Source: Alistipes senegalensis (GTDB taxonomy: Bacteria; Cyanobacteriota; Vampirovibrionia; Gastranaerophilales; Gastranaerophilaceae). From it: DNA of 50,849 nucleotides. Both the position numbers and the translations under genes were made by a program. Positions within the stretch are counted from its first letter, which is position 1; each line of letters opens with the position of its first letter. This document shows, one piece after another, positions 140-38,537 of the stretch. The notes below the pieces were generated by a model. It made no database searches. It saw only the letters and a program-made list of their open reading frames with translations, and was not told where the DNA came from. Location of the stretch: contig CAVFCO010000113.1 of the NCBI GenBank assembly GCA_963620955.1, positions 1 through 50,849 of the forward strand, given 5' to 3'.

Positions 140-640
140 ATGACAGTTACTCAATTAGATAAAGACAGAATTTTAGAAGTACACAAACAAACAGCAGAAG
201 TTATTAAAAAAGGAAACGGTCCTTTCTTCGCTAGAGTTTATGACAAAGACGGAAACATTGTTGCTGAAGCAGGTAATTCAGTTGTAAAAGACAATTGCCC
301 AGTATATCACGCAGAAGTTAATGCAATCAGATGTGCTTGTGCAAACTTAAAAACTTACGACTTAGCACCTTACGATTTGTCATTGTACGTAAACGCTGAA
401 CCTTGCATAATGTGCGTTGGTGCAATTATGTGGTCTGGTATTAAAAAAGTTTACTACGGTGTTCCATCTAAAGATGTTGAAAGAATTACAGGTTTCGATG
501 AAGGCTTCAAACCAAACTGGCATGAAGAATTTGCTAAACGTGGTATTGAAGTTGAAGGCAATATTGAAGTTGAAGCAGGTAAAAAAGTTCTTGAAGACTA
601 TGTAAATAGTGGTAAAGAAGTTTACATGCCATCAAGATAA
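140..640 (+). CDS. CMP/dCMP-type zinc nucleoside/nucleotide deaminase family protein
   Basis: HAEVNAI and PCIMCVGAI zinc-binding motifs (H-A-E ... P-C-x-x-C). AAGAGGA RBS lies upstream of the ATG. Confidence 0.85.
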   Translation: MTVTQLDKDRILEVHKQTAEVIKKGNGPFFARVYDKDGNIVAEAGNSVVKDNCPVYHAEVNAIRCACANLKTYDLAPYDLSLYVNAEPCIMCVGAIMWSGIKKVYYGVPSKDVERITGFDEGFKPNWHEEFAKRGIEVEGNIEVEAGKKVLEDYVNSGKEVYMPSR

Positions 641-664
641 GATGTAATTCTTAGTTTAAACTTA

Positions 665-3051: not shown

Positions 3052-4135
3052 GCAATTCTCCTCGTCTTAAATCTTCAATATAATCTTCTAACAACTGAAT
3101 ATAAACAAGTTTGTATTCGTCGTTTTCAGGTACTAAGTTTACTGCAACTCTGTATGATTTTAAAGAATCTTCAATTCTATTGTTCATATAGTATGTGTTT
3201 GCAATCAAAACGTGAATGCTTGCATCTTCTGGACTTAATTCCAATGCTTTGTTGTAGTATTCAAGAGCCTTGTCGTAATCTTTTGCATTTGAATACATAT
3301 TTCCAACTAAGATATAAGCATTCATTTGTTCAGGATTTTCTTCAATTGCTTTTTTGTATAATTCTAAAGCACCTTCATTGTCTTTGAAGTCTGCTTTTGA
3401 AATTGCGTAGCAAATATAAGTTTTATAATTATCACCCTCAATACCTAATGAAATATCAAAGAATTTGTAAGCATTTTCTTGGTCTTTCATTAAAGAATAT
3501 GTGTTTGCAATACAGATTGTAACTGTTTTGTTTGTTGGGTTTAATTCATAAACTTTTAAATAATGCTCTAAAGCATTTTTGTAATCAAACAATTTGAAAT
3601 ATATGTTACCCAAATCAACGTGAGAAGTTAAGTTGTCAGGGTCTAGTGATAACGCTTTTTCATAGTATGCTTTTGATTCAATAAAATCATCATAATCGTG
3701 GTATAACAAAGCGATTGCGTTATAAATTTCAGGATTTAATGAATAGAAATCAATTGCACGATTGTAGTAATGAAGTGCTTTTGAGAAGTTCTTCATTTCT
3801 GCATAAGTGTTACCTAAATTGAAGTAAACAAGATAGTTTTCTGGGTCGTATTCCATTGCCTTTGTATAGTATTTCAAGGCTTTTTTGTATTCTTTGTCAA
3901 AATAATAAATACTACCAAGATTTAACAACGCTTGAGAATCTTTTGGGTATAGGTTCAAAAGACTTTCGTAAACAGAGATAACTTTATCAAATTTGTTATC
4001 CATTGCGTACAATTTAGCCAATGTATGGTAATTATCCGCATTACTAGGGTCTTGAGCCATTGCCAAGATTGTTGCGTTCAATTCTTGTTGAACTTCTTTT
4101 TGTATTTGTTCGTTTTTATCCATTTCGTTACTCAT
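3038..4135 (-). CDS. TPR-repeat protein
   Basis: Repeated 34-aa units with the pattern A..YY.KAL.L.P.N (for example ALKYYTKAMEYDPEN, ALEYYNKALELSPED). Confidence 0.8.
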   Translation of the reverse strand: MSNEMDKNEQIQKEVQQELNATILAMAQDPSNADNYHTLAKLYAMDNKFDKVISVYESLLNLYPKDSQALLNLGSIYYFDKEYKKALKYYTKAMEYDPENYLVYFNLGNTYAEMKNFSKALHYYNRAIDFYSLNPEIYNAIALLYHDYDDFIESKAYYEKALSLDPDNLTSHVDLGNIYFKLFDYKNALEHYLKVYELNPTNKTVTICIANTYSLMKDQENAYKFFDISLGIEGDNYKTYICYAISKADFKDNEGALELYKKAIEENPEQMNAYILVGNMYSNAKDYDKALEYYNKALELSPEDASIHVLIANTYYMNNRIEDSLKSYRVAVNLVPENDEYKLVYIQLLEDYIEDLRRGELLENA

Positions 4136-19080: not shown

Positions 19081-21141
19081 GTGAACCGATTTTTCAATAA
19101 GAAAATTTTAGCCTTCACTCTCGCTGAAATGATGGTCGTATTGGCACTTTTCAGTGTAATTTCTGCTGCGACAATGCCAGTTATAACAGCAAGACAAAAA
19201 ATGGAGGGTGCTGCTTCAACTTCAGGTGGTATTGAGGGTGATGTAGACGACCCATGGACTCATTTTGAAACCTTTAAGGGCTTGGCTTATTATAACGCAA
19301 GCCAACCTGATACTTCTGCAGTAATGGTTGGTGATGAAGTTACAGACTCATCTTCAAGTTTGGGTAAACCAAGTTTGATTGTTGTGGATAAATATGGTAC
19401 AGGTACAAGCGGTAATGAAGATGCCAGCCAAATAGGACTTTTTAAAGACGTAAGTGGTGTTCCATATTATGGCGGTAGAATTATGATGAGTAATAGTAGC
19501 AATCAATCTACAGGTAGTATTGCTATTGGTGCAAGTGCTTTATCTTACAATTCAAATACTACAGTAAGAACATATAACACGGCTATCGGTTCAAATGCTT
19601 TAGCAGATAATAGTTCAAATACTTCAAAAATTGGCAGTGTTGGTATTGGAGCAAGCACACTATTTGGCTGTAGAAGTGCTTATTCGGTTGCAATTGGTAA
19701 TCAAGCAGGTTATAAAACTACTTCTGAACGTTCTGTAATGATTGGTAACCATGCGGGATATAGTTCTTCAGGTACAGGGAGTTTACAATATTCCGTTGCG
19801 ATTGGTGATAGTGCATTTATGTCATCAAATGCTACAGTCTCAACAAAATTTTCTACTGCGATTGGTACGTATGCCGGAGGTAGTGGAAATGCTGATAATA
19901 GTACGTATATTGGTTATTATGCAGGTGTAAACAATAATTCAACGGACTTAGCGGGTGCTGTTGGTATTGGTACAAGAGCAATGTCTTTAGCACAAGATGG
20001 TGCAGAGGGTGTTGGTATTGGATATTATGCCAGTTATGATGGTTCAGGTAATGCAATTTCTATTGGCAGATATGCAGGTGCTTGGGCTGATAACGGTGGC
20101 GGAACACCAATGTCTTCTGTTTATATTGGTTATCGAGCAGGATACTATCAAGGTGAGTCAGAAAATGCTGTAATGATTGGTCATGATGCAGGGTATGCTA
20201 GTGCCATTACAACAGGTGATGATTATTCAAAAGGTCCTGTATTTATAGGATATAATGCCGGATATAGAAGTTCTGATGAGGCAGATGGAAATAATAACTT
20301 TGCTCCTGCGGTAATTGTTGGTCATGGTGCTGGTTCTGACGGTAATTTTGGTGATGCTGCATATTCTATTTATATGGGAAATCATAGCGGTTATTTGACA
20401 CAAGCCTACGATGCTGTGTGTCTTGGACCTTATACTTGTTCGGATTATCAAAATAGCAACTGGAATGGTGGCTTTGTTGGTATTGCAGGAAAACATGGTT
20501 CTTGGGGAGATATGACCTTAGTTTCAAGTGAAAAAATGAGTGTTATCGGTGATTTACCAAGTACATTAAGAACATCGTCATTGAATACTGGTAACGATTT
20601 GATGTTAATATCACCATTGTATGCTGATCAAACTCCATCAACAAATATACTTTCATCAATCATTTTGTTTGGAGAAGTTTTTAGTTCAAAAAGTTCTATG
20701 ACAATTTTTTCTGATAAGAGATTGAAAGAAAATATCAGACCTGCAAAATACGGTTTGAATGAAGTTAGAAAAATTAACGTATACAACTACAACTGGAAAG
20801 AGGGCGATACAAAAACACCTCAAGTTGGTGTAATTGCTCAAGAGGTTCAAAAAATCATTCCAGAAAGTGTTCACGTAGACAAAGACAAAGAGTTTGGCGG
20901 ATACCTGACGGTTGACGGTTCTTGGTTCCTATACTCAATGGTTAATGCGATAAAAGATTTGGATAAACAAGTTCTAACAATCCAAAAGAAACTTGTTGCG
21001 TATACAAAAGAATATGTTTCTTTGGTACAACGAGTTAATAAATTAGAAAAAGAAGTTAAAGTTTTGGAAAAAGAAAACAAAACTTTGACGCATGAAGTAA
21101 AAGTGGCTTACACAAAAGTCAAAAAGGCAGAAAAAAGATAA
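19081..21141 (+). CDS. Prepilin-leader / Gly-Ala-Tyr repeat fibre / S74 chaperone-domain protein, paralog 1 of 3
   Basis: GTG start. N-terminus is MNRFFNKKILA|FTLAEMMVVLALFSVISAATMPVIT. About 17 degenerate repeats such as SVAIGNQAGY, SVMIGNHAGY, STYIGYYAG. SDKRLKENI starts at Ser544. C-terminal heptad-like KLEKEVKVLEKENK. Confidence 0.8.
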   Translation: MNRFFNKKILAFTLAEMMVVLALFSVISAATMPVITARQKMEGAASTSGGIEGDVDDPWTHFETFKGLAYYNASQPDTSAVMVGDEVTDSSSSLGKPSLIVVDKYGTGTSGNEDASQIGLFKDVSGVPYYGGRIMMSNSSNQSTGSIAIGASALSYNSNTTVRTYNTAIGSNALADNSSNTSKIGSVGIGASTLFGCRSAYSVAIGNQAGYKTTSERSVMIGNHAGYSSSGTGSLQYSVAIGDSAFMSSNATVSTKFSTAIGTYAGGSGNADNSTYIGYYAGVNNNSTDLAGAVGIGTRAMSLAQDGAEGVGIGYYASYDGSGNAISIGRYAGAWADNGGGTPMSSVYIGYRAGYYQGESENAVMIGHDAGYASAITTGDDYSKGPVFIGYNAGYRSSDEADGNNNFAPAVIVGHGAGSDGNFGDAAYSIYMGNHSGYLTQAYDAVCLGPYTCSDYQNSNWNGGFVGIAGKHGSWGDMTLVSSEKMSVIGDLPSTLRTSSLNTGNDLMLISPLYADQTPSTNILSSIILFGEVFSSKSSMTIFSDKRLKENIRPAKYGLNEVRKINVYNYNWKEGDTKTPQVGVIAQEVQKIIPESVHVDKDKEFGGYLTVDGSWFLYSMVNAIKDLDKQVLTIQKKLVAYTKEYVSLVQRVNKLEKEVKVLEKENKTLTHEVKVAYTKVKKAEKR
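20710..20967 (+). other. Peptidase S74-like intramolecular chaperone (tail-fibre autoprocessing) domain, paralog 1
   Basis: FSDKRLKENIRPAKYGLNEVRKINVYNYNWK...PQVGVIAQEVQKIIPESV...YSMVNAIKDL matches the Ser/Lys dyad domain of endosialidase and tail-fibre C-termini as I recall it. Confidence 0.7.
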
Positions 21142-21151
21142 CGGAGAATAG

Positions 21152-23299
21152 ATGAAAAATTTCCCTAAAAATTTCATAGCATTCACCTTGTCAGAAATGA
21201 TGATTGTATTGTTAATCATCAGTGTAATTTCTGCTGCAACTTTGCCTGCAATTACTTCTCGTAATGAATCAAATGCAAGCCAAATTTCAGCATCTACTGG
21301 TGGTACAGTAAATGTATCTTCAAACTGGATGTACGATACAACTTACACAAGAGGGTATTACTACAAAAAAGATAGTGATTACAAATTTGTGATAGGTTCT
21401 CCAAGATATCTTTTTAATGACAGTTCAAATAATAGTGAAGCTGGTTTTAACATCAACCGTAATAACAATGGTAGAGCAGTATTAGAAATTACAAGGTCAA
21501 CTAATAGAGGCTCTAGAATAAAAGACCGCTCTGACATTATTTTGTACGATAAAAATAAATTAAATGTCGGCAGAATTTCTATGGACGACTATAACTCTGT
21601 TGCTATCGGTAAAAATGCAGGATATACTTCATATTCAGCAACAAATATCGATAATTCATTAGTTGTCGGACATCTTGCAGGTGATAATTTTGGTTCAAGA
21701 AATACCATAATTGGTGCTTATGCTAATTACGGCGGTGGTATTGCTTATACAGACAGTGTTTTAGTCGGTTCTAATATAAGAAATCAAGACAATATGTATT
21801 CAAGTGTTGTTATTGGTTCTTATGCTTCTGCTGATAGTTATAAAAACGGCAAAAATTATTCAAATTTGTATAACTACGTTGGTATTGGTACTTATGCCGG
21901 ACACGGCAACCCATCTAACAATATGTATGGTGTAAATGTTGGTTATTACGCCGGTGCAAGAGGTGAAAACAAAGTTAATAACATAAGCCATTCACATATC
22001 AATATCGGTGCCTATGCCGGTTATGATTCATCACCAAATGGATATATCCCTGGACTTAATAGAACTGACCCAAAAATCAACTACCAATCAAGTGTTATCA
22101 ATGTTGGATATTGGGCTGGTTCAGAACAATATGAAGCAAAAAATGTAAGCAACAAGCCAAGTGGTGATGGTTTTGGTGCTGTTAATATTGGTTATTATGC
22201 CGGAAATAGTTCTGTAAGAGGTGGTAATATCAATATTGGTCAATATACTGACTACAATAACTCTGGACAAGATAATAAATCAGGCGATTTTAAAATTAAT
22301 ATTGGTGAATTTGCAGGTGAAAACGCAAAAGGATTGTCTGAAAAGGTTGTAAATATCGGTCGTAATGCCGGTAGAAATAGTACTGCTCCATATTCTATAA
22401 ATATTGGTGTTTATGCTGGTGGTAATTCTACTCAAAATAGAAATATCAATATCGGTGCTTATGCCGGTTTTAGTAACAATGCAACGGATTCTATCTTTAT
22501 TGGGCATTACGCAGGTGCGTATGTTCAAGGTAGCCAAAATATTGTAATTTCATCACTTACTACACCTCAAACGGTAACATCATCGTTTAATGGTAATCAA
22601 AATGTCTTTATTGGTTGTTTAAAAGATTTATCTAAAGTAAGTTACAACTTCTCTTACAGATATTGTATTGGTGGTCAATTGCCAAGAGATACTGTAGAAT
22701 ATGGTTCAAGTAAAATATGGTCTACATCAGATTCATCAGGTACTTACAAATATCAAATGTTATTTGTCCCTGGGGGTATAAAAGCATCATCTGCTGTCGG
22801 TTTCCCTTATACATCAATCGTGCTTTATGCAAGATATGTTGTTGCTCCAAATGCTACAATGAAAGCATTTTCTGACAAACGATTAAAAGAAAATATTAAA
22901 CCAACAAAATACGGTATCGACAAATTAAGAAATGTTATAGTTTATCAATACAATATGATTGGCAAACCTGAACCTTGTATCGGTGTTGTTGCTCAACAAT
23001 TGATGAAATTCTATCCGTATGCGGTTAACAAAGCACCTGAAGCAGTTAAAAAAGGTGGATATCTTTCTGTAGATACAGATTGGATTATATATTCTCTTGC
23101 TCAATCAATAAAAGATGTTGACAAAGTTGCAACAGAATTGAGCGAGGATTTGTCTTTGAAAGTTAAAAATTTGATTAGTTTAACTCAAAGAGTAAACAAT
23201 ATTGAAGTTAGACTTGATAGAATTGCAAAATCTAATCAAGAAACAAAAAAACAACTAAAAGAAATGGAAAGTATTACAAAAAAATGGAGTAGCAAGTAA
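21152..23299 (+). CDS. Prepilin-leader / repeat fibre / S74 chaperone-domain protein, paralog 2 of 3
   Basis: MKNFPKNFIA|FTLSEMMIVLLIISVISAATLPAIT. Repeats such as NSVAIGKNAGY, VNVGYYAGA, INIGAYAGY, VNIGYYAGN, INIGVYAGG. SDKRLKENI starts at Ser574. C-terminal coiled-coil-like tail. Starts 10 nt after paralog 1. Confidence 0.8.
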   Translation: MKNFPKNFIAFTLSEMMIVLLIISVISAATLPAITSRNESNASQISASTGGTVNVSSNWMYDTTYTRGYYYKKDSDYKFVIGSPRYLFNDSSNNSEAGFNINRNNNGRAVLEITRSTNRGSRIKDRSDIILYDKNKLNVGRISMDDYNSVAIGKNAGYTSYSATNIDNSLVVGHLAGDNFGSRNTIIGAYANYGGGIAYTDSVLVGSNIRNQDNMYSSVVIGSYASADSYKNGKNYSNLYNYVGIGTYAGHGNPSNNMYGVNVGYYAGARGENKVNNISHSHINIGAYAGYDSSPNGYIPGLNRTDPKINYQSSVINVGYWAGSEQYEAKNVSNKPSGDGFGAVNIGYYAGNSSVRGGNINIGQYTDYNNSGQDNKSGDFKINIGEFAGENAKGLSEKVVNIGRNAGRNSTAPYSINIGVYAGGNSTQNRNINIGAYAGFSNNATDSIFIGHYAGAYVQGSQNIVISSLTTPQTVTSSFNGNQNVFIGCLKDLSKVSYNFSYRYCIGGQLPRDTVEYGSSKIWSTSDSSGTYKYQMLFVPGGIKASSAVGFPYTSIVLYARYVVAPNATMKAFSDKRLKENIKPTKYGIDKLRNVIVYQYNMIGKPEPCIGVVAQQLMKFYPYAVNKAPEAVKKGGYLSVDTDWIIYSLAQSIKDVDKVATELSEDLSLKVKNLISLTQRVNNIEVRLDRIAKSNQETKKQLKEMESITKKWSSK
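22871..23122 (+). other. Peptidase S74-like intramolecular chaperone domain, paralog 2
   Basis: FSDKRLKENIKPTKYGIDKLRNVIVYQYNM...CIGVVAQQLMKFYPYAV...YSLAQSIKDV. Confidence 0.7.
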
Positions 23300-23304
23300 T
23301 CGTT

Positions 23305-25455
23305 ATGAAAAAATTTAAACAAAAAAATTGCATAGCCTTTACCTTAATGGAAATGACACTTGTTTTGCTTATTACAAGTATCATTGCTGCTGCATCTACT
23401 CCTATTGTAACATCTGCTGTTTCAGACTACGCAGACCAAAACTACAAGGCTACAGGTGGTGAAGCACAAGATGTTCCATGGCGTGTATCATCAGGTTATG
23501 ACGGCGGAGGTATTTATAACTCTAAAAAAGAAATAACATCTCCTGTTGGTATGAACGTAAAATTTGGTTCAAACGCATCTAACTACGGATACCCAACACT
23601 TGCGATTGAATCTTTAGGACAATATAACCTTTTCAATGCTCCGCAAATTGCTATGATAAATGCCGCTACAACAGGATATTCTACTATTGGAATGGACGAA
23701 TTTGAAAATGTTGCAATAGTCAATGGTGCAGACTCTTTCATTTCAAGTAAGAGCAGTTCTTCAAAAAATACATATATTGGCGAAAAAAGTGTATTTTTAG
23801 GTGCAGACATTCAAACAACTGCTCCGTATGCTAGTACCGCATTGGATGATATGTATTATGACAATTCTGTTTTAGTCGGTCAATATATTAATACTCGTAT
23901 GACTGAAAACGGCATTTACATGGGTTATGGGATTACTCGTGGAGTTAACGAAAGAAACGTAATCGCAATCGGTAACAACCTAAACTCAGAAGAAGCTTAC
24001 AGTGCAACTTACCAAGGTAACATTCAAATTGGTAATTATGGTAACCAAGCAAAAATTGCAAATTGTATCGCAATCGGTAACTATGCGGCTTATTCTAGCG
24101 GTTTTAAACATGATATCGCAATAGGTCATTTTGCGGGCATGAATTCTGCATTTTATACTTCCTTTATATATACTGTAGGTGATTCTGCAAATATTTCTAT
24201 GGGGCAATATGCAGGTGCAATTAAAAGTCTGTATAACGGAAATATTATTGCCCTCGGAAATTTTAATACAATAAGTATCGGTGGTTATGCCGGCTATATT
24301 GATGTAGATTCTGGACGTTCAAATAGTAATAACATAAATATTGGAGATTTTGCCGGACTTTTCCAAAAAACTACTGCTGCTGCTATCGATTCACTTTATC
24401 AAAATATTAGTATCGGTTATTATGCCGGAGCAAGACCGTTTTCGGCGAATTCAGGTGTAACTTTGGCAAATAACAATGTTGTCCTTGGATACTATGCAGG
24501 TTACAATGCTCCATATAGTAATAGAAACGTTATCATTGGGCCATACGTAGGTAACCAAGTCCAAACTACGAGTTCCATTATAATCGGTAGTGGTTATAAA
24601 GAACGAGAAGTTGACCAAACGGGCTCTGCGTTGGGTAAAGACAATAGTCAAATATCTTATGGTGCTTTAATTTTAGGTACCGGTGCTGGTGCGTATAGTA
24701 ATGCAACTTACGGAAACGTGAATATCGGCTACTATGCCGGAAACCTCTCATCTCGATTCTCTAAACTATATGGTAATGTTGCTATTGGTCCAAATACTTG
24801 CAGAGCGGTTAGTGGGCAAAACAAGTGGTGTCTTGGCTGGGGAAGCCAAGTTGTATGGAATGCAATCTCCCTTGTCGATAATACAACAGTTTGGGATCAT
24901 ACATCAGATGCTCCTCAAATGTTTATTGGTTATGCCGGTACTAGTACTTTAAATTACGATTCATCTGACTGGAATCAAACAGCGATTACTCTATATGCCT
25001 CAAATGTATTTAGACCATCATCGACAAGTTTTAATACTTTGCGTTGGTCAGATAAAAGACTTAAAACAAACATATCAAGAGTAGTTGGCTCTTTAGACAA
25101 AATTAGAAAAGTAAACATCTACGATTATACACTTAAAAAAGACGAACACCACACTCCAAGAATCGGTGTTTTGGCTCAAGAGTTCAAAAAAATCTTCCCA
25201 ACAGAAGTTAAACAAGAACCAAATAGCAAAATGTATGCAGTTGGTGTAGATTCGCTTATCTACACAATGCTTGATGCGATAAAAGATTTGGATATAAATA
25301 TCCAAAATCTACAAAAATATTTTGATGCATACGTTAACGACTTTATGGGCTTGAAATCAAAAGTTGCTAAACTAGAAGCACAATCTAAAAAACTCCAAAC
25401 TGAAAATGCAGAAATGAAATCAAGACTTGCAAAAATTAATGCAAAATTGAAATAG
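23305..25455 (+). CDS. Prepilin-leader / repeat fibre / S74 chaperone-domain protein, paralog 3 of 3
   Basis: MKKFKQKNCIA|FTLMEMTLVLLITSIIAAASTPIVT. Repeats such as CIAIGNYAAY, DIAIGHFAGM, ISIGGYAGY, ISIGYYAGA, VNIGYYAGN. SDKRLKTNI starts at Ser582. C-terminal coiled coil KVAKLEAQSKKLQTENAEMKSRLAKI. Starts 5 nt after paralog 2. Confidence 0.8.
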   Translation: MKKFKQKNCIAFTLMEMTLVLLITSIIAAASTPIVTSAVSDYADQNYKATGGEAQDVPWRVSSGYDGGGIYNSKKEITSPVGMNVKFGSNASNYGYPTLAIESLGQYNLFNAPQIAMINAATTGYSTIGMDEFENVAIVNGADSFISSKSSSSKNTYIGEKSVFLGADIQTTAPYASTALDDMYYDNSVLVGQYINTRMTENGIYMGYGITRGVNERNVIAIGNNLNSEEAYSATYQGNIQIGNYGNQAKIANCIAIGNYAAYSSGFKHDIAIGHFAGMNSAFYTSFIYTVGDSANISMGQYAGAIKSLYNGNIIALGNFNTISIGGYAGYIDVDSGRSNSNNINIGDFAGLFQKTTAAAIDSLYQNISIGYYAGARPFSANSGVTLANNNVVLGYYAGYNAPYSNRNVIIGPYVGNQVQTTSSIIIGSGYKEREVDQTGSALGKDNSQISYGALILGTGAGAYSNATYGNVNIGYYAGNLSSRFSKLYGNVAIGPNTCRAVSGQNKWCLGWGSQVVWNAISLVDNTTVWDHTSDAPQMFIGYAGTSTLNYDSSDWNQTAITLYASNVFRPSSTSFNTLRWSDKRLKTNISRVVGSLDKIRKVNIYDYTLKKDEHHTPRIGVLAQEFKKIFPTEVKQEPNSKMYAVGVDSLIYTMLDAIKDLDINIQNLQKYFDAYVNDFMGLKSKVAKLEAQSKKLQTENAEMKSRLAKINAKLK
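25048..25293 (+). other. Peptidase S74-like intramolecular chaperone domain, paralog 3
   Basis: WSDKRLKTNISRVVGSLDKIRKVNIYDYTLK...PRIGVLAQEFKKIFPTEV...YTMLDAIKDL. Confidence 0.7.
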
Positions 25456-29866: not shown

Positions 29867-31576
<1,710 letters not shown>

Positions 31577-31591
31577 TATAAAGGTAAAAAA

Positions 31592-34500
31592 ATGACAAAT
31601 ATGTATACAACACAGAAGAAAACAGTAGATTTCATTAATAAACAAATGGATAAAGGTGCATTGAAAAACTTACTTGCACAAATCTATCTTGAATTTGGTG
31701 GTGCAAAAACAGCAACCCTTGCTAACACTTTGAAAAACTTGGGTTACCATTACGCAACAAAATCAGGCGTAACAATTTCAATTTCAGATTTGTCTGTACC
31801 TCCTATCAAGCAACAATTGTTGAAAGAAGCAGATGAAGAAATTCAAAAATCAACAAACAGATACTTAAAAGGTGAAATTACCGAAGTAGAAAGATATACA
31901 AAAGTTATCGACACTTGGTCAGAAACAACAGCAAAATTAACTGAACAAGTAGTTAAAAACTTCGATAGATTGAACCCAGTATATATGATGGCGTTCTCTG
32001 GTGCCAGAGGTAACTTATCACAAGTATCACAATTGGTTGGTATGCGTGGTTTGATGGCTGATGCACAAGGTCAAATCATCGACTTGCCGATTAGAGCAAA
32101 CTTTAAAGAAGGATTGTCAGTAACTGAATACATCATTTCTTCATACGGTGCTCGTAAAGGTCTTGTAGATACAGCGTTGAAAACAGCCGACTCTGGTTAC
32201 TTAACAAGACGTTTGGTTGACGTTGCTCAAGACGTTATCATTCGTGATACAGATTGCCACGGTAAAAAACACATTATGTTGAAAGGTATCTACGACGGAG
32301 ATACTTGTATTGTTCCATTAATCGACAGATTATTGGGTAGAACAATTGCTCAAGATATCGTTGATGCTGACGGCAATGTTTTAATCGAAGCAAACACAAC
32401 TTTAGATAGAAAAGATATCAAGAAAATTGAACGTTCTGGTATTGAATTAACAGAACTTGCAGTTCGTTCAGGCTTAACTTGTGAACTTGAATATGGTATT
32501 TGCCAAAAATGTTACGGTTGGGCAATGACAACTCAAAAATTAGTTGATGTTGGTGAATCAATTGGTATTATCGCAGCACAATCAATCGGTGAACCTGGTA
32601 CACAGTTAACAATGAGAACATTCCACACTGGTGGTGTATTTAAAGGTTCTGGTGCTATGAAACACATCATCGCTGAAGAAGCAGGTGAAATTGTTTCAGA
32701 CGTTAAAACTCGTGAAGTTAGAACACGTCACGGGGATATCGTACAAATCCTTATTCTTGAATCTGATGTCGAAGTTAAAGGCGAAAAGAAATCAAGAAAA
32801 TACCACATTCCTGCAGGTGCTAAAATCTTATTCAAAAAAGGTCAAAAAATTGAAAAAGGCTTTGAACTTGCTGAATACGAACCAGTATCACAAGGGGACG
32901 GTTCTCGTTTAACAGAAAAAGCAACAAAAGATATTACTTCTGATTTGTCAGGTGAAGTTGTTTACCAAGACTTTACTGCAGATGAAAAGAAAGACAGACA
33001 AGGTAACGTATCAAGAACTGCTAACAAGAGCGGTGTTGTTTGGGTTCTAGGTGGCGATGTTTACAACTTACCTGGTGGTTCAAAAATTCTTGTTAAAGAT
33101 GAACAAAAAATTAAACAAGGCGAAAAATTGGCTGAAACACTTACAATCTGCGAACACGGTGGTGAAGTAAGAGTTGGCGAAGACCTTGAAATTGAAGAAA
33201 CTAAATTTGAAGGTAAAAAAATCAAGAAAATTGTTTCTGGTAAAGAATTAACAATCGTTATCGCTTCAATTATGCCTTCAAATGCTTCATTTGAACAAAC
33301 TAAAAAAGAACAAATTTGGACAGTTGAAGATTCAGGCGAAAAATATATCGTTAAATCTCCAGTTGATACAACAGTTGAAAACGGTATGATTATTGCCGAA
33401 TTAATCAGTGATGATTGCTCAGTTTCATCTTCTGGTGAAATCAAATACATCGACGTAGAAGTTGATGAAAACCAAATCATTACAAAATCTGGTGATATCG
33501 TATTTATTCCAGAAGAAGTTCACCAATTGAACAAAGAATCTTCTTTGAAAATGGTTGAATCTGGTACAAAAGTTACTGCTGGTACAGAAATTGTAAAAGA
33601 CGTATACTGCCACTTAGACGGTATCGTTGAAATCAAAGAATACAATGATGTAATTCACGAAGTAACAATCAGACCTGGTGAAATTCACCAACTTGCAAAC
33701 GTTTCAGAATTGAAAGTTGAAGAAGGTGAAGTAATCAAAAAAGGTACTTTAATCGCTGACGGTATCAAAGCAAAAGAAACTTCAATCGTTACAATTATGG
33801 ATTCAGATATGGAAGATTTGGACATCGAAGATTTAGATGAAGAAAAAGAATCTTTGAGTCTTGATGAAGATAGTATCGCAAATCAACCAATTCAAATCTT
33901 AGTAAGACCAGTTCAAGTTATCAAAATTAATCAAAAAGACGTATCAATCAAATTTGATACAACTGATGAATTAATTGATATTATTCCTGTAACTCAATTA
34001 CAATACAAAGACGGTGCAAGAGTAAGAAATCTTGACGGTGCTACATTAATCAGAACAAGTTTAGTACTTCAAATGCAAGGCTACTTATCTCACTTAAAAG
34101 GTATGGTAGAACTTGATGAAAAAGGTGCTTTGAAAATTGTTGTACTTGATAAATTAATCGTACGTCGTGAAATTGAAGGTAATTCAAAATTAAACGATTC
34201 ACTTCAAACTGAACTTTTAGTTAAAAACGGTGAAACAATTGCTCCAAAAACACCAGTAGCAAAAACTTGTGTATTAGCAATGAATGACGGTGTTGCTTCA
34301 ATCAAAAACGAAGAAGAAGAAGCAAGAAGATTACTTTTAATTTGTGAAAACTACGAAGAAAAAGTTGCAATCAAATCAAAAGCAGTTGTAAAAGCCGGTC
34401 AATTTATAAAACAAGACGATTTATTAACAGAAGGTGAAGACAGATCTCCAGTTTCTGGTCAAATCGTAAGTGTTACAAAATCAGAAATCGTAATTCGTGC

Positions 34501-35455
34501 TGGTAGACCATACTTAATCAGCCCTGGTACAATGTTACAAGTATCAGCAGGTTCATTGGTACTACGTGGTGATATGCTTGTTACATTGGTATACGAAAGA
34601 CAAAAAACAGGTGATATCGTACAAGGTCTTCCAAGAGTAGAAGAATTACTTGAAGGTAGAAAACCAAAAGACTGTGCTATTTTGGCTGAAGAAGACGGTA
34701 CTGCTATCATTGAAACAGATGATGATATGCCAAGATTGTATGTAGAAAATGAAGAAGGTGCTAGAACTGAAATCAAATTTGCAATCGATGCAAATATCGT
34801 TGTTCAAAATGGTCAAAAAATCAAAAAAGGTCAACCATTAACAAGTGGTCCTTTGAACCCACACGATGTTATCAGATTATGTGGTCCAGAAGTAGCACAA
34901 CAATACTTGGTAGACGAAGTACAACGTGTATACCGTTCTCAAGGTGTAGAAATCGCTGATAAACACGTTGAAATCATCGTAAGACAAATGACTAAGAAAG
35001 TTAAAGTAGTTGATGCTGGTGATACAAACTTACTTCCGGGTGAATTGGTTGAAGTTCAATTATTCGAAAAAGAAAATGCAGCAGTTCAAGCAAATGGCGG
35101 TCAAGTTGCAACTTGTGAGTACATGTTATTAGGTATCACAAAAGCATCATTGAATACTGAATCATTTATTTCTGCAGCATCATTCCAAGAAACAACAAGA
35201 ATCTTGACAGAAGCAGCAGTTGACGGTAAAAAAGACTTGTTGAGAGGTTTGAAAGAAAACGTTATCATCGGTCGTCTAATCCCTGCTGGTACTGGTTTCT
35301 ATCACTTAACTCATGCAAATGAAGAAAAGGATAAAGAAGCACAACGTCGTGCAGCACAAAGAAACCAAGCAAGAAAACCATCTGCAATTCTTGAAGAAAT
35401 CGAAGGAATGTTCGGTGCTCCTGAATTTTCAATTGATGATGAAACAATCGGTTAG
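31592..35455 (+). CDS. rpoC2: DNA-directed RNA polymerase subunit beta-prime (C-terminal part, split rpoC) with a large trigger-loop insertion
   Basis: 1287 aa. SGARGN and bridge-helix [21 protein letters not shown]. Trigger-loop halves [10 protein letters not shown] and [15 protein letters not shown] are separated by about 650 aa. Confidence 0.95.
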
Positions 35456-35518: not shown

Positions 35519-36328
35519 TTAAACTCCAGAACCTTTGATTTCGATTTTTTTCAAACGTTGTTCAATTTTTCTGTACCATTTTAGTGGTTGTTGGAATAGA
35601 GTTTTGTATTCGTCTAATTTACCTTCTGAAAGTTCTTTGAACTGTTTATCGCAAGATTCTGTCATTACATTTTCTAAGTAATGAGTATATTCTTTTCTAT
35701 CGATTTTGCTATCATCTAAAACGATTGGGTCGTGGAATTCAACCAAAACTTCCGGTCTATCCGCACGTAAGAACATATAATTTACCGCAACCGGAATTAG
35801 ATTAACTTTGCCATATTTTTCCACTGCATTTTGTGCAATGTATGCAAGACCTGTTTGGAAATTTATAGGTCTGTAGTTAGGTGGCATGATAATTCCTTGT
35901 GGGAAAATATACAAGAAATTATTCAAATCACCAATTGCTTCAACTGAATATTTAAGTGCTGCCATAGAGGCTTGTGGAGATTTTTTGTTAACTGAAAATG
36001 CTCCTGCACGACGTAATAATGGGAAGCGGTTTAATTCTTCAACCATAATACGAATTTCTTTTTTGAAAATTCTTCTGCAGATGTTATAGCCAACAATACC
36101 GTCCCACCAGTTTGAATGAGGTGCAAAAAGTATTGTAGGGATAGAATCATCTCTTTCTAAAACTTTTTCAGCATTCTTATGACGGAGAGCGAAAAATCTA
36201 TTTTCAAGCATTCCGTAGAAAAACTGATTGCCTACCCACAACCAAAATTTAGAGGTTTTTGCGGGTGCGAATTTTTCATTTTTATTCCTCAATTTTGTTG
36301 GAGGAACTTTTGAATATAAATTTTCCAT
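35519..36328 (-). CDS. PlsC-family lysophospholipid/glycerolipid acyltransferase
   Basis: HSNWWDG (HX4D acyltransferase motif) and IFPQG (motif III-like). 269 aa. Confidence 0.7.
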   Translation of the reverse strand: MENLYSKVPPTKLRNKNEKFAPAKTSKFWLWVGNQFFYGMLENRFFALRHKNAEKVLERDDSIPTILFAPHSNWWDGIVGYNICRRIFKKEIRIMVEELNRFPLLRRAGAFSVNKKSPQASMAALKYSVEAIGDLNNFLYIFPQGIIMPPNYRPINFQTGLAYIAQNAVEKYGKVNLIPVAVNYMFLRADRPEVLVEFHDPIVLDDSKIDRKEYTHYLENVMTESCDKQFKELSEGKLDEYKTLFQQPLKWYRKIEQRLKKIEIKGSGV

Positions 36329-36427
36329 ATTGTCATTTTATAACAGCCATACTTTTTTAAACCCTTTAAAAAGTGTAATTTTTAAAAAACTTAACATATC
36401 CGTTGACGGCAAAAATGGTTTATTATA

Positions 36428-36600
36428 GCATGGGCTCAGAGGAAATGAAGTGAATATCTTCAACTGTGCCGCAGCCGTAAAAGTCGGAATGCTCCGGAAA
36501 GATTGGAAGGTCTTTCATGTAACTTATCGCCGAACTTCGGATACAAAGTTAAGGCTTAATTATTAAAACTGAATAATTACCCAACCCCTTTAGATAAGTT
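36428..36600 (+). promoter_or_regulatory. Candidate cobalamin (B12) riboswitch-like leader
   Basis: Plus-strand AGGAAA, then hairpin GAAG-UGAAUAU-CUUC (36448..36462), then ACUGUGCCGCAGCCGUAA (36464..36481). This parallels the conserved core GGGAA..GGUGAAA..CC..GCUG.C.CGCAGC.GUAA of cobalamin riboswitches (E. coli btuB leader, from memory). Followed by GGAAUGCUCCGG (36487..36498) and UUGGAAGGUC (36504..36513), resembling the GAAUGCCAC / GGGAAGGC elements. I did not find a clear B12 box or P1 stem. Confidence 0.5.
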
Positions 36601-36640
36601 TCTCAGCACCCTAAGGAAGTATAAGGATAAGTGTAACGTA

Positions 36641-37381
36641 ATGCCTGTTGCAGGTGTACAAACGAATAACGTAAGTAATGGAACATGTCCTCACGGATTG
36701 CCACACGGAGCGTGTCCAATTTGTTCTGGTGGAATGGGAAGTGCTTCTCAAAAGAAAGCAGATTTCTCAGCAAAACCAGGGGAAATGAGTTGGAACGAAT
36801 GTGCCGCAATTGGTGCAATGATGCGTGCTGCAAAACTTCGAAAACAAATGAATGCTCAGGCTCATGAGAATAGGCTTATGCAGATTGCAAATTTTGAGCG
36901 AACAATGATGAATACATCTCAAAAATTGGCTCAATTGGTTGCAATGGTATCAAATAATATGCCAAGTGCTATTGCAAAGCCTGTTTCTGTAATGATTAAC
37001 AAAGTTTTAATTCCAGTTCTCAATACAATGAAGAATATTCCAACAAATATAATGAAATCTTTTGATGCTATACGGCAAAAGGTTTTTGATATTCAAGATA
37101 AACTGAATGCGATGTTTGGTGAAATGAAAAATTCTATTGAAAAGAAAGTCTCCGAAACTCTCGCTAATTTTAGAAAAAAAGTCCGATTACTTTTCCAAGT
37201 AGACGAAACAACCGAAACCACGGACGAAGAAAAGGAAATTGAGGAAGAAAAACGAACATTTGAGGTTAAAACTTTTATAAACGATTTGTACAACAAAATT
37301 ACTCAAATGACCCAAACTTACGGACAATATAAAAAAGAAGAATTTGAAAATAAAAACAAAGACAAAAACAAAACAGGATAA
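36641..37381 (+). CDS. Hypothetical protein with N-terminal Cys/His knuckle and Lys/Glu-rich helical tail
   Basis: 246 aa. CPHGLPHGACPICSGG near the N-terminus; the rest looks helical or coiled-coil, with a TTETTDEEKEIEEEK and KNKDKNK tail. No signal peptide. Confidence 0.6.
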   Translation: MPVAGVQTNNVSNGTCPHGLPHGACPICSGGMGSASQKKADFSAKPGEMSWNECAAIGAMMRAAKLRKQMNAQAHENRLMQIANFERTMMNTSQKLAQLVAMVSNNMPSAIAKPVSVMINKVLIPVLNTMKNIPTNIMKSFDAIRQKVFDIQDKLNAMFGEMKNSIEKKVSETLANFRKKVRLLFQVDETTETTDEEKEIEEEKRTFEVKTFINDLYNKITQMTQTYGQYKKEEFENKNKDKNKTG

Positions 37382-37383
37382 AA

Positions 37384-37884
37384 ATGCAAGTTAATAAAAT
37401 AACAAACAATTTAGCAAAACTAATGTTAGTAGACGATTTAGGCTTTAAAAAAGCCCAAATGCCAACTGCAAACAGACCTTATTGCATTTTTGATATGGAT
37501 AAGGTTGATGTTTTTGTTAAAAATAAAGAAAAAGCACTTCCAAAATTGTCCAATATGCTTCAAACTGCAAAAACAGAAGATGAAATTGTAGAGGGGCTAT
37601 ATATTGCAGATAGAATGATTGACGGTGGAACAAAAGGTATTGGAAATCTTTACTATTCAGTATTCTCACGTTTTAATGAGTCAAGAAGTGCAAATGTTCA
37701 AACTTTTTTGTCTGGAATTTATAGAAAAACTCTAAATCCAGATGCGTTTGGACCTTTGGTAAAAATGATGTGTAACAATATCATTGACCCTCCAAAATCA
37801 AACTTTGACCCGAATGAAGAAGTCGGTGGGGCAGTAATTGAGTATATCAGAGATGCAGTAAAGCAAAGTAAATCTAAAAAGTAA
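37384..37884 (+). CDS. Hypothetical protein, paralog A of a duplicated pair
   Basis: 166 aa. Starts 2 nt after the previous stop. Shares a long conserved core with the next gene (PYC.FD..KVD.FV..KEKA.P.L..ML..AKTEDEI.EGLYIADRMI..GTKG). Confidence 0.6.
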   Translation: MQVNKITNNLAKLMLVDDLGFKKAQMPTANRPYCIFDMDKVDVFVKNKEKALPKLSNMLQTAKTEDEIVEGLYIADRMIDGGTKGIGNLYYSVFSRFNESRSANVQTFLSGIYRKTLNPDAFGPLVKMMCNNIIDPPKSNFDPNEEVGGAVIEYIRDAVKQSKSKK

Positions 37885-37916: not shown

Positions 37917-38537
37917 ATGAGATTACAAGCAATCACAAATCCAATTAGCAGAGTATTTTTCAAAAGTTCAGAAGTCGAAAAAACTCCAGTTCAAGCAGTT
38001 CAACCAATTGCGAGTGGTTTAAATCAACCAGAAAAAGATGAATTCGTAAAAAATACTCCAGCAGAAGATGACAAACCTTTTGAATTACCAAAAGATGTTG
38101 AATTCAAAAAGCCAAGAATGGCTACAAAAGAAAAACCTTATTGCGAATTTGACCAAAACAAAGTAGATTTGTTCGTAAATGCAAAAGAAAAAGCAATTCC
38201 AACATTGACAAAAATGTTAGGCGAAGCAAAAACAGAAGATGAAATTTGCGAAGGTTTATACATCGCAGACAGAATGATTGCAAACGGTACAAAAGGCATG
38301 GATAAAATGTATTACGGTTCATTCTCACGTTTTAACGAAGACCGTTCACCAAACGTTCAATCATTGTTGTCAGGTGTTTATAGAAGAATATTAGTTCCAG
38401 ATGCTTTTGGACCTTTGATGAAAATGTTGGTTACAAACATTTTAGTTCCTCAAAAAGACGCACCATTTGACCCAAATGAAGCAATTGGCGGTTCAATTTT
38501 AGAACACATTAAAACGAAGGAGATTCACCCTCTGTAG
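37917..38537 (+). CDS. Hypothetical protein, paralog B of the duplicated pair, with about 70 extra N-terminal residues
   Basis: 206 aa with a strong AAGGAAAAGGAAAG RBS. About 60 percent identity to paralog A over about 135 aa, by manual alignment. Confidence 0.6.
   Translation: MRLQAITNPISRVFFKSSEVEKTPVQAVQPIASGLNQPEKDEFVKNTPAEDDKPFELPKDVEFKKPRMATKEKPYCEFDQNKVDLFVNAKEKAIPTLTKMLGEAKTEDEICEGLYIADRMIANGTKGMDKMYYGSFSRFNEDRSPNVQSLLSGVYRRILVPDAFGPLMKMLVTNILVPQKDAPFDPNEAIGGSILEHIKTKEIHPL

Follow-up and report, generated by a model that had tools for sequence, protein, structure and literature searches.

A probable class-II cobalamin riboswitch in the leader of an uncharacterised operon from gut Gastranaerophilales

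The locus

The contig CAVFCO010000113.1 (GenBank assembly GCA_963620955.1), the whole stretch of 50,849 nucleotides (nt) analysed here and hereafter called the window, contains a divergent intergenic spacer of 312 nt (36329-36640), with an acyltransferase gene on one side and an open reading frame (ORF) of 246 amino acids (aa) on the other. Within this spacer, the plus strand very likely encodes a genuine class-II cobalamin (vitamin B12) riboswitch of the family RF01689, which would form the 5' leader of an operon of three genes, as judged from comparison of sequences. The main features of the locus are:

35519-36328, minus strand: acyltransferase gene (PF01553)
36403-36431, plus strand: promoter-like, sigma-70-like element, TTGACG (36403-08), 17-nt spacer, TAGCAT (36426-31)
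36439-36494, plus strand: aptamer as probably transcribed, a four-way junction delineated from covariation in 88 distinct sequences
36641-37381, plus strand: gene 1, 246 aa, Cys4/His helical protein
37384-37884, plus strand: gene 2, 166 aa, HEAT/ARM-like alpha-solenoid
37917-38537, plus strand: gene 3, 206 aa, paralog of gene 2 (56% identity) with an N-terminal extension

The aptamer and its conservation

When both strands of the window were searched with cmscan against Rfam 15 (4227 families, gathering thresholds), the sole match was RF01689 (AdoCbl-II, class-II cobalamin) at 36424-36502 on the plus strand, with a score of 40.0 bits for a gathering score of 36.5 bits (E = 3.7e-6) and the full model covered (positions 1-81 of 81). 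In the Rfam alignment, agreement is good in the core, i.e., GGAAA, the GUGAA hairpin, P5, P6 and J6/3. P6 consists of a stem of 3 bp capped by a loop of 7 nt, and the P7-P11 peripheral extension, the mark of class I, is absent as in RF01689. The aptamer segment stands at 46% G+C against 34% for the genome. Its elements and the hairpin following it are, all on the plus strand:

36439-41 with 36492-94: closing helix, GAG/CUC, 3 bp
36441-45: joining segment GGAAA
36446-62: P4
36465-73: P5, with loop L5 UGCCG at 36467-71
36475-87: P6
36488-91: J6/3, AAUG
36497-36516: hairpin PX, GAAAGA/UCUUUC with loop UUGGAAGG, in the linker leading from the aptamer to P13

An earlier note on this DNA had proposed a cobalamin-riboswitch-like leader from a series of strings, all of which were recovered in the order given on the plus strand of 36329-36640, namely AGGAAA (36440-45), GAAG-UGAAUAU-CUUC (36447-61), ACUGUGCCGCAGCCGUAA (36463-80), GGAAUGCUCCGG (36486-97), UUGGAAGGUC (36503-12) and AAGGA (36613-17 and 36623-27). 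The proposal stands, the cmscan score exceeding the gathering score in RF01689 rather than in RF00174, except for the part played by UUGGAAGGUC: the note had equated it with the core element GGGAAGGC, and it actually lies outside the aptamer, where it forms the loop and 3' strand of PX. The note had also staked its proposal on a structure shared by orthologous leaders, and this structure proves to be both conserved and covarying.

Among diverse orthologous loci, 16 out of 17 match RF01689 at or above the Rfam gathering score (36.6-49.2 bits), on the gene's own strand and 80-220 nt upstream. With a lineage covariance model built from these sequences, the aptamer is recovered ahead of the orthologous gene in 80/80 reference-genome loci as well as in the window, with 47-100 bits. 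Across the 88 distinct sequences, P4 displays double-sided changes in 4/5 pairs, with 96.6% of cells paired. In the closing helix, the inner three pairs are maintained, one of them being GC in 68, AU in 10 and UA in 4 sequences (14 double changes), and the outermost two modelled pairs are unpaired in 52/88 and 72/88 sequences. The covariation score reaches 0.188 versus 0.082 upon shuffling (0/500 reach the observed value), and sliding the partners gives no more than 0.079. The RF01689 core (P5, P6, J6/3 and GGAAA) is invariant throughout, P5 and P6 being hence uninformative on covariation. The linker hairpin PX exhibits compensatory changes in 3/6 pairs (4 cases, e.g., GAAUAA/UUAUUC in locus L008) in the RNAalifold analysis of the 18 leaders of clade A, i.e., the window and 17 further loci.

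In two loci, L068 (3782-3928) and L070 (1315-1460), the P6 loop of an otherwise class-II aptamer carries an insertion of ~55 nt, which resembles the beginnings of a class-I-like peripheral extension.

Promoter and missing P1

The promoter motif TTGA[CT]N-N17/18-TAnnnT, ending 9-14 nt before GGAAA, is found in 75/81 loci. The 5' strand of the helix aligned by Rfam as P1 (36424-29 with 36497-502) coincides with its conserved -10 box, and of the six P1 pairs of the window, three are non-standard. Because the conserved promoter overlaps this Rfam-aligned P1, the transcript is predicted to start at the 3-bp closing helix, around 36438, one to three bases ahead of its GAG. With such a start, the P1 5' strand and internal loop would be the -10 box and spacer, i.e., a DNA signal and not RNA. 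As such, the outer P1 part is probably not a real helix, P1 being a peripheral element that makes no contact with the ligand. The earlier note had found no convincing P1 stem by eye, for which the promoter offers an explanation: it lies across the place where P1 would be expected, so that only the 3-bp closing helix would be left in the RNA.

The kissing loop and the expression platform of clade A

Downstream of PX, the leader of the window comprises the following elements, all on the plus strand:

36520-36551: alt-P13 hairpin, UAACUU/AAGUUA and CCGA/UCGG, a thermodynamic prediction
36521-28: switch strand a1, AACUUAUC
36529-36555: P13 hairpin, GCC-G-AACUU, loop CGGAUACA, AAGUU-AA-GGC
36538-45: loop L13, CGGAUACA, CGG-AUA-CA, kissing L5 (UGCCG, 36467-71)
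36557-36579: AT-only hairpin, UAAUUAUU-AAAACUG-AAUAAUUA, third arm of a three-way junction
36580-88: C-rich single strand CCCAACCCC, unpaired probability 0.81-0.85
36593-600: GAUAAGUU, closing the three-way junction with AACUUAUC (36521-28)
36613-36643: initiation region, with AAGGA (36613-17), Shine-Dalgarno sequence (SD) AAGGA (36623-27), GAUAAGU (36626-32) and AUG (36641-43)

In the window, L5 and L13 form five Watson-Crick pairs (CCG/CGG and UG/CA) and leave three nucleotides unpaired. In all three platform clades, the loop of the first hairpin after the aptamer starts with CG and is complementary to L5, five Watson-Crick pairs with a bulge of 1-3 nt being found in 77/79 loci. Six L5 variants occur (UGCCG, UACCG, UGUCG, UGACG, AGCCG and UGGCG), each with its cognate L13. 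Full complementarity is seen in 27 of the 29 distinct L5/L13 combinations for a permutation mean of 9.6 (0/5000 permutations match), the permutation test ignoring phylogeny; many different compensated states exist, and independent events are therefore likely. In class II, the junction on one side and the L5-L13 kissing loop on the other enclose the ligand, and this loop always keeps unpaired nucleotides, with L13 borne on a stem-loop (Polaski et al., 2016; PMC5028336). Here too, at least one nucleotide remains unpaired in the kissing loop and L13 sits on a stem-loop. From the pattern of compensated pairs, the reading of L5-L13 as the cobalamin-stabilised kissing loop of class II is well supported, and the sensing step is regarded as well supported too.

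Three pairing options are available to the switch strand AACUUAUC, namely (i) AAGUU of P13, giving alt-P13, (ii) GAUAAGUU, and (iii) the SD-adjacent box GAUAAGU, which overlaps the 3' end of the SD. The first is made possible by a repetition, AACUU being present at 36521-25 and 36533-37 and AAGUU at 36546-50 and 36596-600. In alt-P13, the kissing nucleotides CGG of L13 are hidden inside the CCGA/UCGG stem. Both hairpins are predicted to be isoenergetic (-7.0 versus -7.0 kcal/mol) in the window and in 11/17 of its clade relatives, and published kissing-loop models require such a bistability (PMC10327014). The second option closes a three-way junction around P13 and the AT-only hairpin, with a stem conserved in 16-18 of the 18 leaders. 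The AT-only hairpin is itself kept in clade A, with two compensatory changes; as no U-run follows it, it was rejected as an intrinsic terminator. The earlier note had reported this hairpin and the long-range complement AACTTATC/GATAAGTT, and both are present, though each sits one base lower than it had placed them, i.e., at 36557-79 instead of 36558-80 for the former and at 36521-28/36593-600 for the latter.

The window leader was modelled with two proxies, an unbound one where the alternative hairpin was forced and a bound one where the aptamer and P13 were forced. From the unbound to the bound proxy, the unpaired fraction falls from 0.66 to 0.07 for the SD-adjacent box and from 0.44 to 0.18 for the AUG; the modelled accessibility effect on the initiation region is modest. 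Full complementarity of the SD-adjacent box to the switch strand is restricted to the window and the two relatives nearest to it.

Three other candidate elements were considered and set aside. Pairing of GAGGA in the aptamer 5' strand with UUCUC (36600-04), by analogy with clade C (see below), is predicted in the window and is not conserved in the closest relatives. Complementarity of the C-rich stretch to the SD is not conserved either. A minimal 'start-stop' ORF at 36505-22, within and just behind the linker hairpin (SD-like GGAAGG, six nucleotides, AUG-UAA), lacks its AUG in 7/18 relatives and is probably incidental.

Right after the start codon, a small hairpin is found (36644-36654, CCUG-UUG-CAGG), with compensatory changes in relatives, namely GCAG-UAA-CUGC in L009 and GCA...UGC in L014 and L015. 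It is kept though the encoded residues differ (PVAG versus AVTA), and it may be part of translational control.

Clade C and a proposed switching mechanism

Clade C groups the loci L023-L080, complete genome MEL.A1 included, 54 leaders of which were folded thermodynamically. There, P13 is followed by a stretch with complementarity to the closing helix of the aptamer (3' strand), and then successively by UCCUCU, AGAGGA (the SD), a U-run and the AUG, with the SD in a separate hairpin. In nascent leaders, CCUC is paired with the aptamer's own 5' GAGG (50/54), and in full-length leaders with the SD (34/54); at least five U/C come after the SD hairpin in 54/54. On the basis of this folding, the platform reads as a B12-OFF terminator/sequestrator, where a locked aptamer would free the anti-SD CCUC(U), toggling it from the aptamer 5' GAGG to the SD. 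Across the lineage, three different platforms serve the same gene; these, like the other distinguishing features of this RNA, are variations of the platform and not a new riboswitch class.

For the window clade, the following scheme is proposed. When B12 is scarce, alt-P13 would compete with P13, hide L13 and occupy AACUUAUC, leaving the initiation region open and the operon expressed. Once B12 is bound, the L5-L13 kissing would lock P13 and release AACUUAUC, which could then pair with GAUAAGUU or with GAUAAGU abutting the SD; access to the SD and AUG would drop and the operon would be repressed. The OFF direction is considered probable in this clade, mainly because of its relatives, i.e., the architecture of clade C and the analogy with the nrdDG copies described below, and the coupling from the kissing loop to the ribosome site in the window is put forward more tentatively.

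Depth of the association between riboswitch and operon

In the fetched loci, ten additional copies of the aptamer are present, each immediately ahead of nrdD-nrdG and frequently back-to-back with the operon in the same genomes. These genes encode the B12-independent anaerobic ribonucleotide reductase, a classic B12 target that is, to our knowledge, repressed by B12 in all known cases. For instance, L055 displays back-to-back aptamers at 3685-3776 (minus) and 3847-3918 (plus), the minus copy leading to nrdDG, likewise in nine other loci.

The association also extends to remote relatives. Of the six most distant homologs of gene 1 with readable contigs, five have a cobalamin-clan aptamer just upstream, namely RF00174 in L081 (53.6 bits), RF01689 in L087 (51.3 bits) and L085 (42.0 bits), and two further ones that fall below the Rfam threshold and score 45-50 bits with the lineage covariance model. 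In L087, a single intergenic region harbours divergent riboswitches, RF01482 at 288-428 (minus) and RF01689 at 563-643 (plus).

A metagenome scan with the lineage aptamer core retrieved 80 loci, of which 76 were informative: 69 precede the gene-1 operon, five nrdD and two a gene for a 78-aa protein, and none lies ahead of a known B12 transporter, a cob gene or metE. As the search pattern derives from these very leaders, the scan is biased towards them. While the upstream neighbour varies between loci (acyltransferase, nrdD, a radical SAM gene and others), the aptamer stays with gene 1. The suggestion of the earlier note that three proteins come under B12 control thus gains ground from sequence, the coupling of aptamer and gene family being deep enough to include distant homologs and metagenome loci.

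The 78-aa protein (MISRIMPVSFKGN...GSLLTGILGLMEMVNTLLSMSTKK) stands behind the same aptamer type in L115 (890-913, with ORF 1039-1275) and L131, both from the same organism, and adds a rare third member to the B12 regulon of this lineage.

The proteins under putative B12 control

Gene 1 encodes an N-terminal segment C16-P-H-G-L-P..A-C25-P-I-C28..KADFSAKPGEMSWNEC54AAIG followed by long helices. The invariant module of the family, C-P-H-G-L-P-x2-A-C-P-I-C ... KADFSAKPGEMSWNEC, contains four invariant Cys and one His. The family counts 1589 relatives (90% clusters), i.e., 257 clusters at 50% identity, of ~230-250 aa and none of them named. The AlphaFold2 (AF2) model is all-helical with low confidence (predicted local distance difference test, pLDDT, 49.5) and unusable for a fold search. 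For gene 2, the solenoid is modelled at pLDDT 90.6, and in a Foldseek search against the PDB the best matches were karyopherin and alphaRep repeats, none of them significant (E >= 0.07). The earlier note had described the downstream genes as devoid of any known B12 connection, and this holds: searches in Pfam, NCBIfam, PADLOC and PHROG yielded only weak coiled-coil noise, and neither gene 1 nor the HEAT-like families have a relative among PDB sequences.

The composition of the operon varies. In clade C, and without exception in the distant members, the next gene overlaps gene 1 and has 450-530 codons; its product of ~500 aa has at least two strong transmembrane segments, and one HEAT-like gene usually comes after it. 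In the operon of the window clade, two HEAT-like genes are present and this ~500-aa gene is missing. PF28028 is listed for two of the homologs of the ~500-aa protein.

The three proteins of the window operon begin alike, namely MPVAGVQTNN (36641-36670), MQVNKITNN (37384-37410) and MRLQAITNP (37917-37943), and the orthologs start with MSLGAVQTNS, MQLAAMQTTT and similar. Shared by otherwise unrelated proteins, this N-terminal motif could be a targeting or export tag.

Downstream of the clade-C operon (L078, 6900-8381; L055, 6777-7925; and most loci), a protein of 380-490 aa is encoded, with conserved termini (MGMAASQARFLGLTARKTNVEFEGQQINQQ... and ...LELRLKQLDTEQDAISTE...), a variable middle and several diverged copies per locus. 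Its architecture recalls filament subunits, and it has no family matches.

Evidence to the contrary and alternative explanations

Several observations weigh against a B12-repressed leader of this kind. Regarding the aptamer, the window exceeds the gathering score by just 3.5 bits, the outer P1 helix with its 5' internal loop, part of the family model, is probably absent here, and the distant homolog L084 has no detectable riboswitch. Regarding the platform, none of the 18 clade-A leaders shows a compensatory change in the junction stem 36521-28/36593-600, no anti-SD segment is common to all 18, the accessibility of the SD core (36623-27) is unchanged between the proxies (0.47 unbound, 0.57 bound), and L13, located 95 nt upstream of the AUG, does not contain the ribosome-binding site (RBS), unlike in env8. 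The transcription start is inferred from the promoter consensus, and, for the start site or attenuation, the RNA-seq search found only two low-depth, fragmentary runs holding this sequence, which were uninformative.

Among the alternatives, a genuine cobalamin riboswitch that turns the operon ON upon B12 binding in the window clade survives best, while being unlikely. It would draw on the tentative output step of clade A and on the pairing of AACUUAUC with GAUAAGUU, which would leave the SD open in the bound state (the box being 0.61 unpaired when this pairing is forced), and activating corrinoid riboswitches do exist (PMC10327014). The orthologous gene in clade C nevertheless has a clear OFF architecture and the sister aptamers control the B12-repressed nrdDG. 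In the window itself, the bound ensemble favours the SD-adjacent pairing over the upstream pairing by ~1.5 kcal/mol.

More improbable still is a fold retained for something other than B12, either as a variant of changed specificity or as a relic serving as a constitutive structured leader. Variants with altered specificity are known in other riboswitch classes, and the near-threshold score of the window and the missing P1 could be read in this way. Such drift is difficult to reconcile with an RF01689 core invariant in all 88 distinct sequences, with a cobalamin-contacting kissing loop maintained by compensatory change, and with identical aptamers controlling nrdDG. In addition, a classical RF00174 aptamer substitutes in a distant homolog, a replacement that speaks for a specific requirement for B12 sensing in this gene family.

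As the element sits in a divergent intergenic region, its target might lie elsewhere, i.e., the acyltransferase gene on the minus strand or, with the element acting as a small RNA, a target in trans, as B12 riboswitches do occur in trans-acting RNAs of eut regulation in Enterococcus and Listeria. This is very improbable, given that the aptamer is on the plus strand downstream of a conserved promoter of the same orientation, that it remains attached to gene 1 in every locus despite the changing upstream neighbour, and that in the window no terminator separates the two. Finally, AT-rich intergenic DNA might resemble the cobalamin consensus by chance, a reading for which the slim margin in bits and the poor P1 pairs might plead; it has next to no likelihood in view of the E-value, the covariation over 80/80 orthologous loci and the G+C content of the segment.

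Possible function of the regulon

With the OFF-switching class-II riboswitch retained as the preferred explanation, the operon genes very probably have a B12-related role. Since the switch would be of the OFF type, the proteins would be made under B12 limitation, and the most likely role suggested by these sequence relationships is corrinoid acquisition or trafficking, or else a B12-sparing bypass. Cobalamin regulons have been divided into four categories, i.e., biosynthesis, transport of B12 and precursors, cobalt transport, and isozymes (Sun et al., 2013; PMC3766115). The operon, whose proteins match no known family, would fit none of them, and sister copies of the aptamer control nrdDG. While the RNA belongs to a known class, the regulon attached to it is new; no relevant report was found in the literature on cobalamin riboswitches of Melainabacteria or Gastranaerophilales, or on this operon.

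On balance, we lean slightly towards the following view: the operon for the CPHG protein, the HEAT-like proteins and the ~500-aa membrane protein would be a previously unrecognised, Melainabacteria-specific B12-linked system and the main B12-responsive operon of the Gastranaerophilales, encoding either a new kind of machinery for the capture or trafficking of corrinoids or a B12-sparing function that the four categories do not cover, in which the Cys4/His module of gene 1 would handle the metal or corrinoid.

Few clues to what an unknown gene does are as reliable as a riboswitch, its ligand being known, and competition for B12 shapes gut communities. Here, a B12 sensor is tied to one uncharacterised operon across an order of gut bacteria, even through a change of aptamer class, and this operon together with nrdDG makes up almost everything controlled by this aptamer type. 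As such, a set of 'hypothetical proteins' becomes a testable question, namely how gut-dwelling non-photosynthetic relatives of cyanobacteria respond to B12 shortage, and the answer could reveal a new strategy of corrinoid acquisition or sparing. On the RNA side, the lineage offers a class-II aptamer without P1 that would begin at the transcription start, with three platforms for one gene.

Genomic surroundings and host

The window has a G+C content of ~34% and is an ordinary chromosomal segment, with housekeeping genes such as rpoB, rpoC1/rpoC2, ftsH, cdaA, an Opp-type ABC transporter and others; none of the genes in these 50.8 kb is B12-related. The host belongs to the Gastranaerophilales (Melainabacteria), i.e., non-photosynthetic gut relatives of cyanobacteria. 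The rpoC gene is split (29867-35455) into rpoC1 (569 aa) and rpoC2 (1287 aa), a cyanobacterial arrangement, which agrees independently with the Melainabacteria assignment. The GTDB species genomes with relatives of the gene at 36641 are nearly all labelled Gastranaerophilales or Melainabacteria, MEL.A1 (CP017245) being one of them.

At 19081-25455, three tandem paralogs (686, 715 and 716 aa) each carry at the C-terminus a Peptidase_S74 domain, which serves endosialidases and tail fibres as an intramolecular chaperone. Such an array is unusual for a chromosome segment, and no other phage genes are found nearby.

Comparison with known systems

One set of counterparts is formed by the cobalamin riboswitches of nrdDG and of B12-independent isozymes (categories of PMC3766115). 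Within the same genomes, nrdD-nrdG has the same aptamer type and presumably the same logic, with expression when B12 is lacking; the present operon differs in seemingly falling outside the four categories and in encoding proteins of no recognisable family.

As an RNA, the element is closest to env8HyCbl and the AdoCbl-variant class II (RF01689; Johnson et al., 2012; PMC5028336). Common to both are the compact four-way junction devoid of P7-P11, the GGAAA segment, the P4 T-loop-like GUGAA hairpin, P5/L5, P6 and J6/3, together with a regulatory L5-L13 kissing loop in which L13 keeps unpaired nucleotides and is carried by a stem-loop. The differences are (i) the lack of P1, the transcript seeming to start at the 3-bp closing helix, (ii) the location of the ribosome site, which in the env8 type is within L13/P13 whereas the SD is here at 36623-27, (iii) a linker to P13 of ~34 nt including a hairpin, versus 7 nt of single strand in env8, (iv) the number of unpaired L13 nucleotides, 1-3 at variable positions versus two strictly conserved ones in the marine AdoCbl-variant set, and (v) the host, i.e., a gut Melainabacteria lineage versus marine bacteria.

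Regarding the switching logic, the likeness is with the repressing corrinoid riboswitch of metE in Priestia megaterium, where the kissing loop stabilises a marginal P13 with an internal loop, and where P13 versus an alternative helix decides on the formation of a downstream repressive hairpin (PMC10327014). The ON alternative considered above would have its analogue in cobT of Alkalihalobacillus halodurans, a corrinoid riboswitch whose kissing-loop-stabilised P13 prevents a repressive structure. While metE combines a class-I aptamer with a transcription terminator, the window clade would rely on SD-adjacent pairing and has no terminator. The competitor of P13 also differs from that of metE, since the window clade would use the 5' flank of P13 with its duplicated AACUU, and in clade C the anti-SD would pair with the aptamer's own 5' strand.

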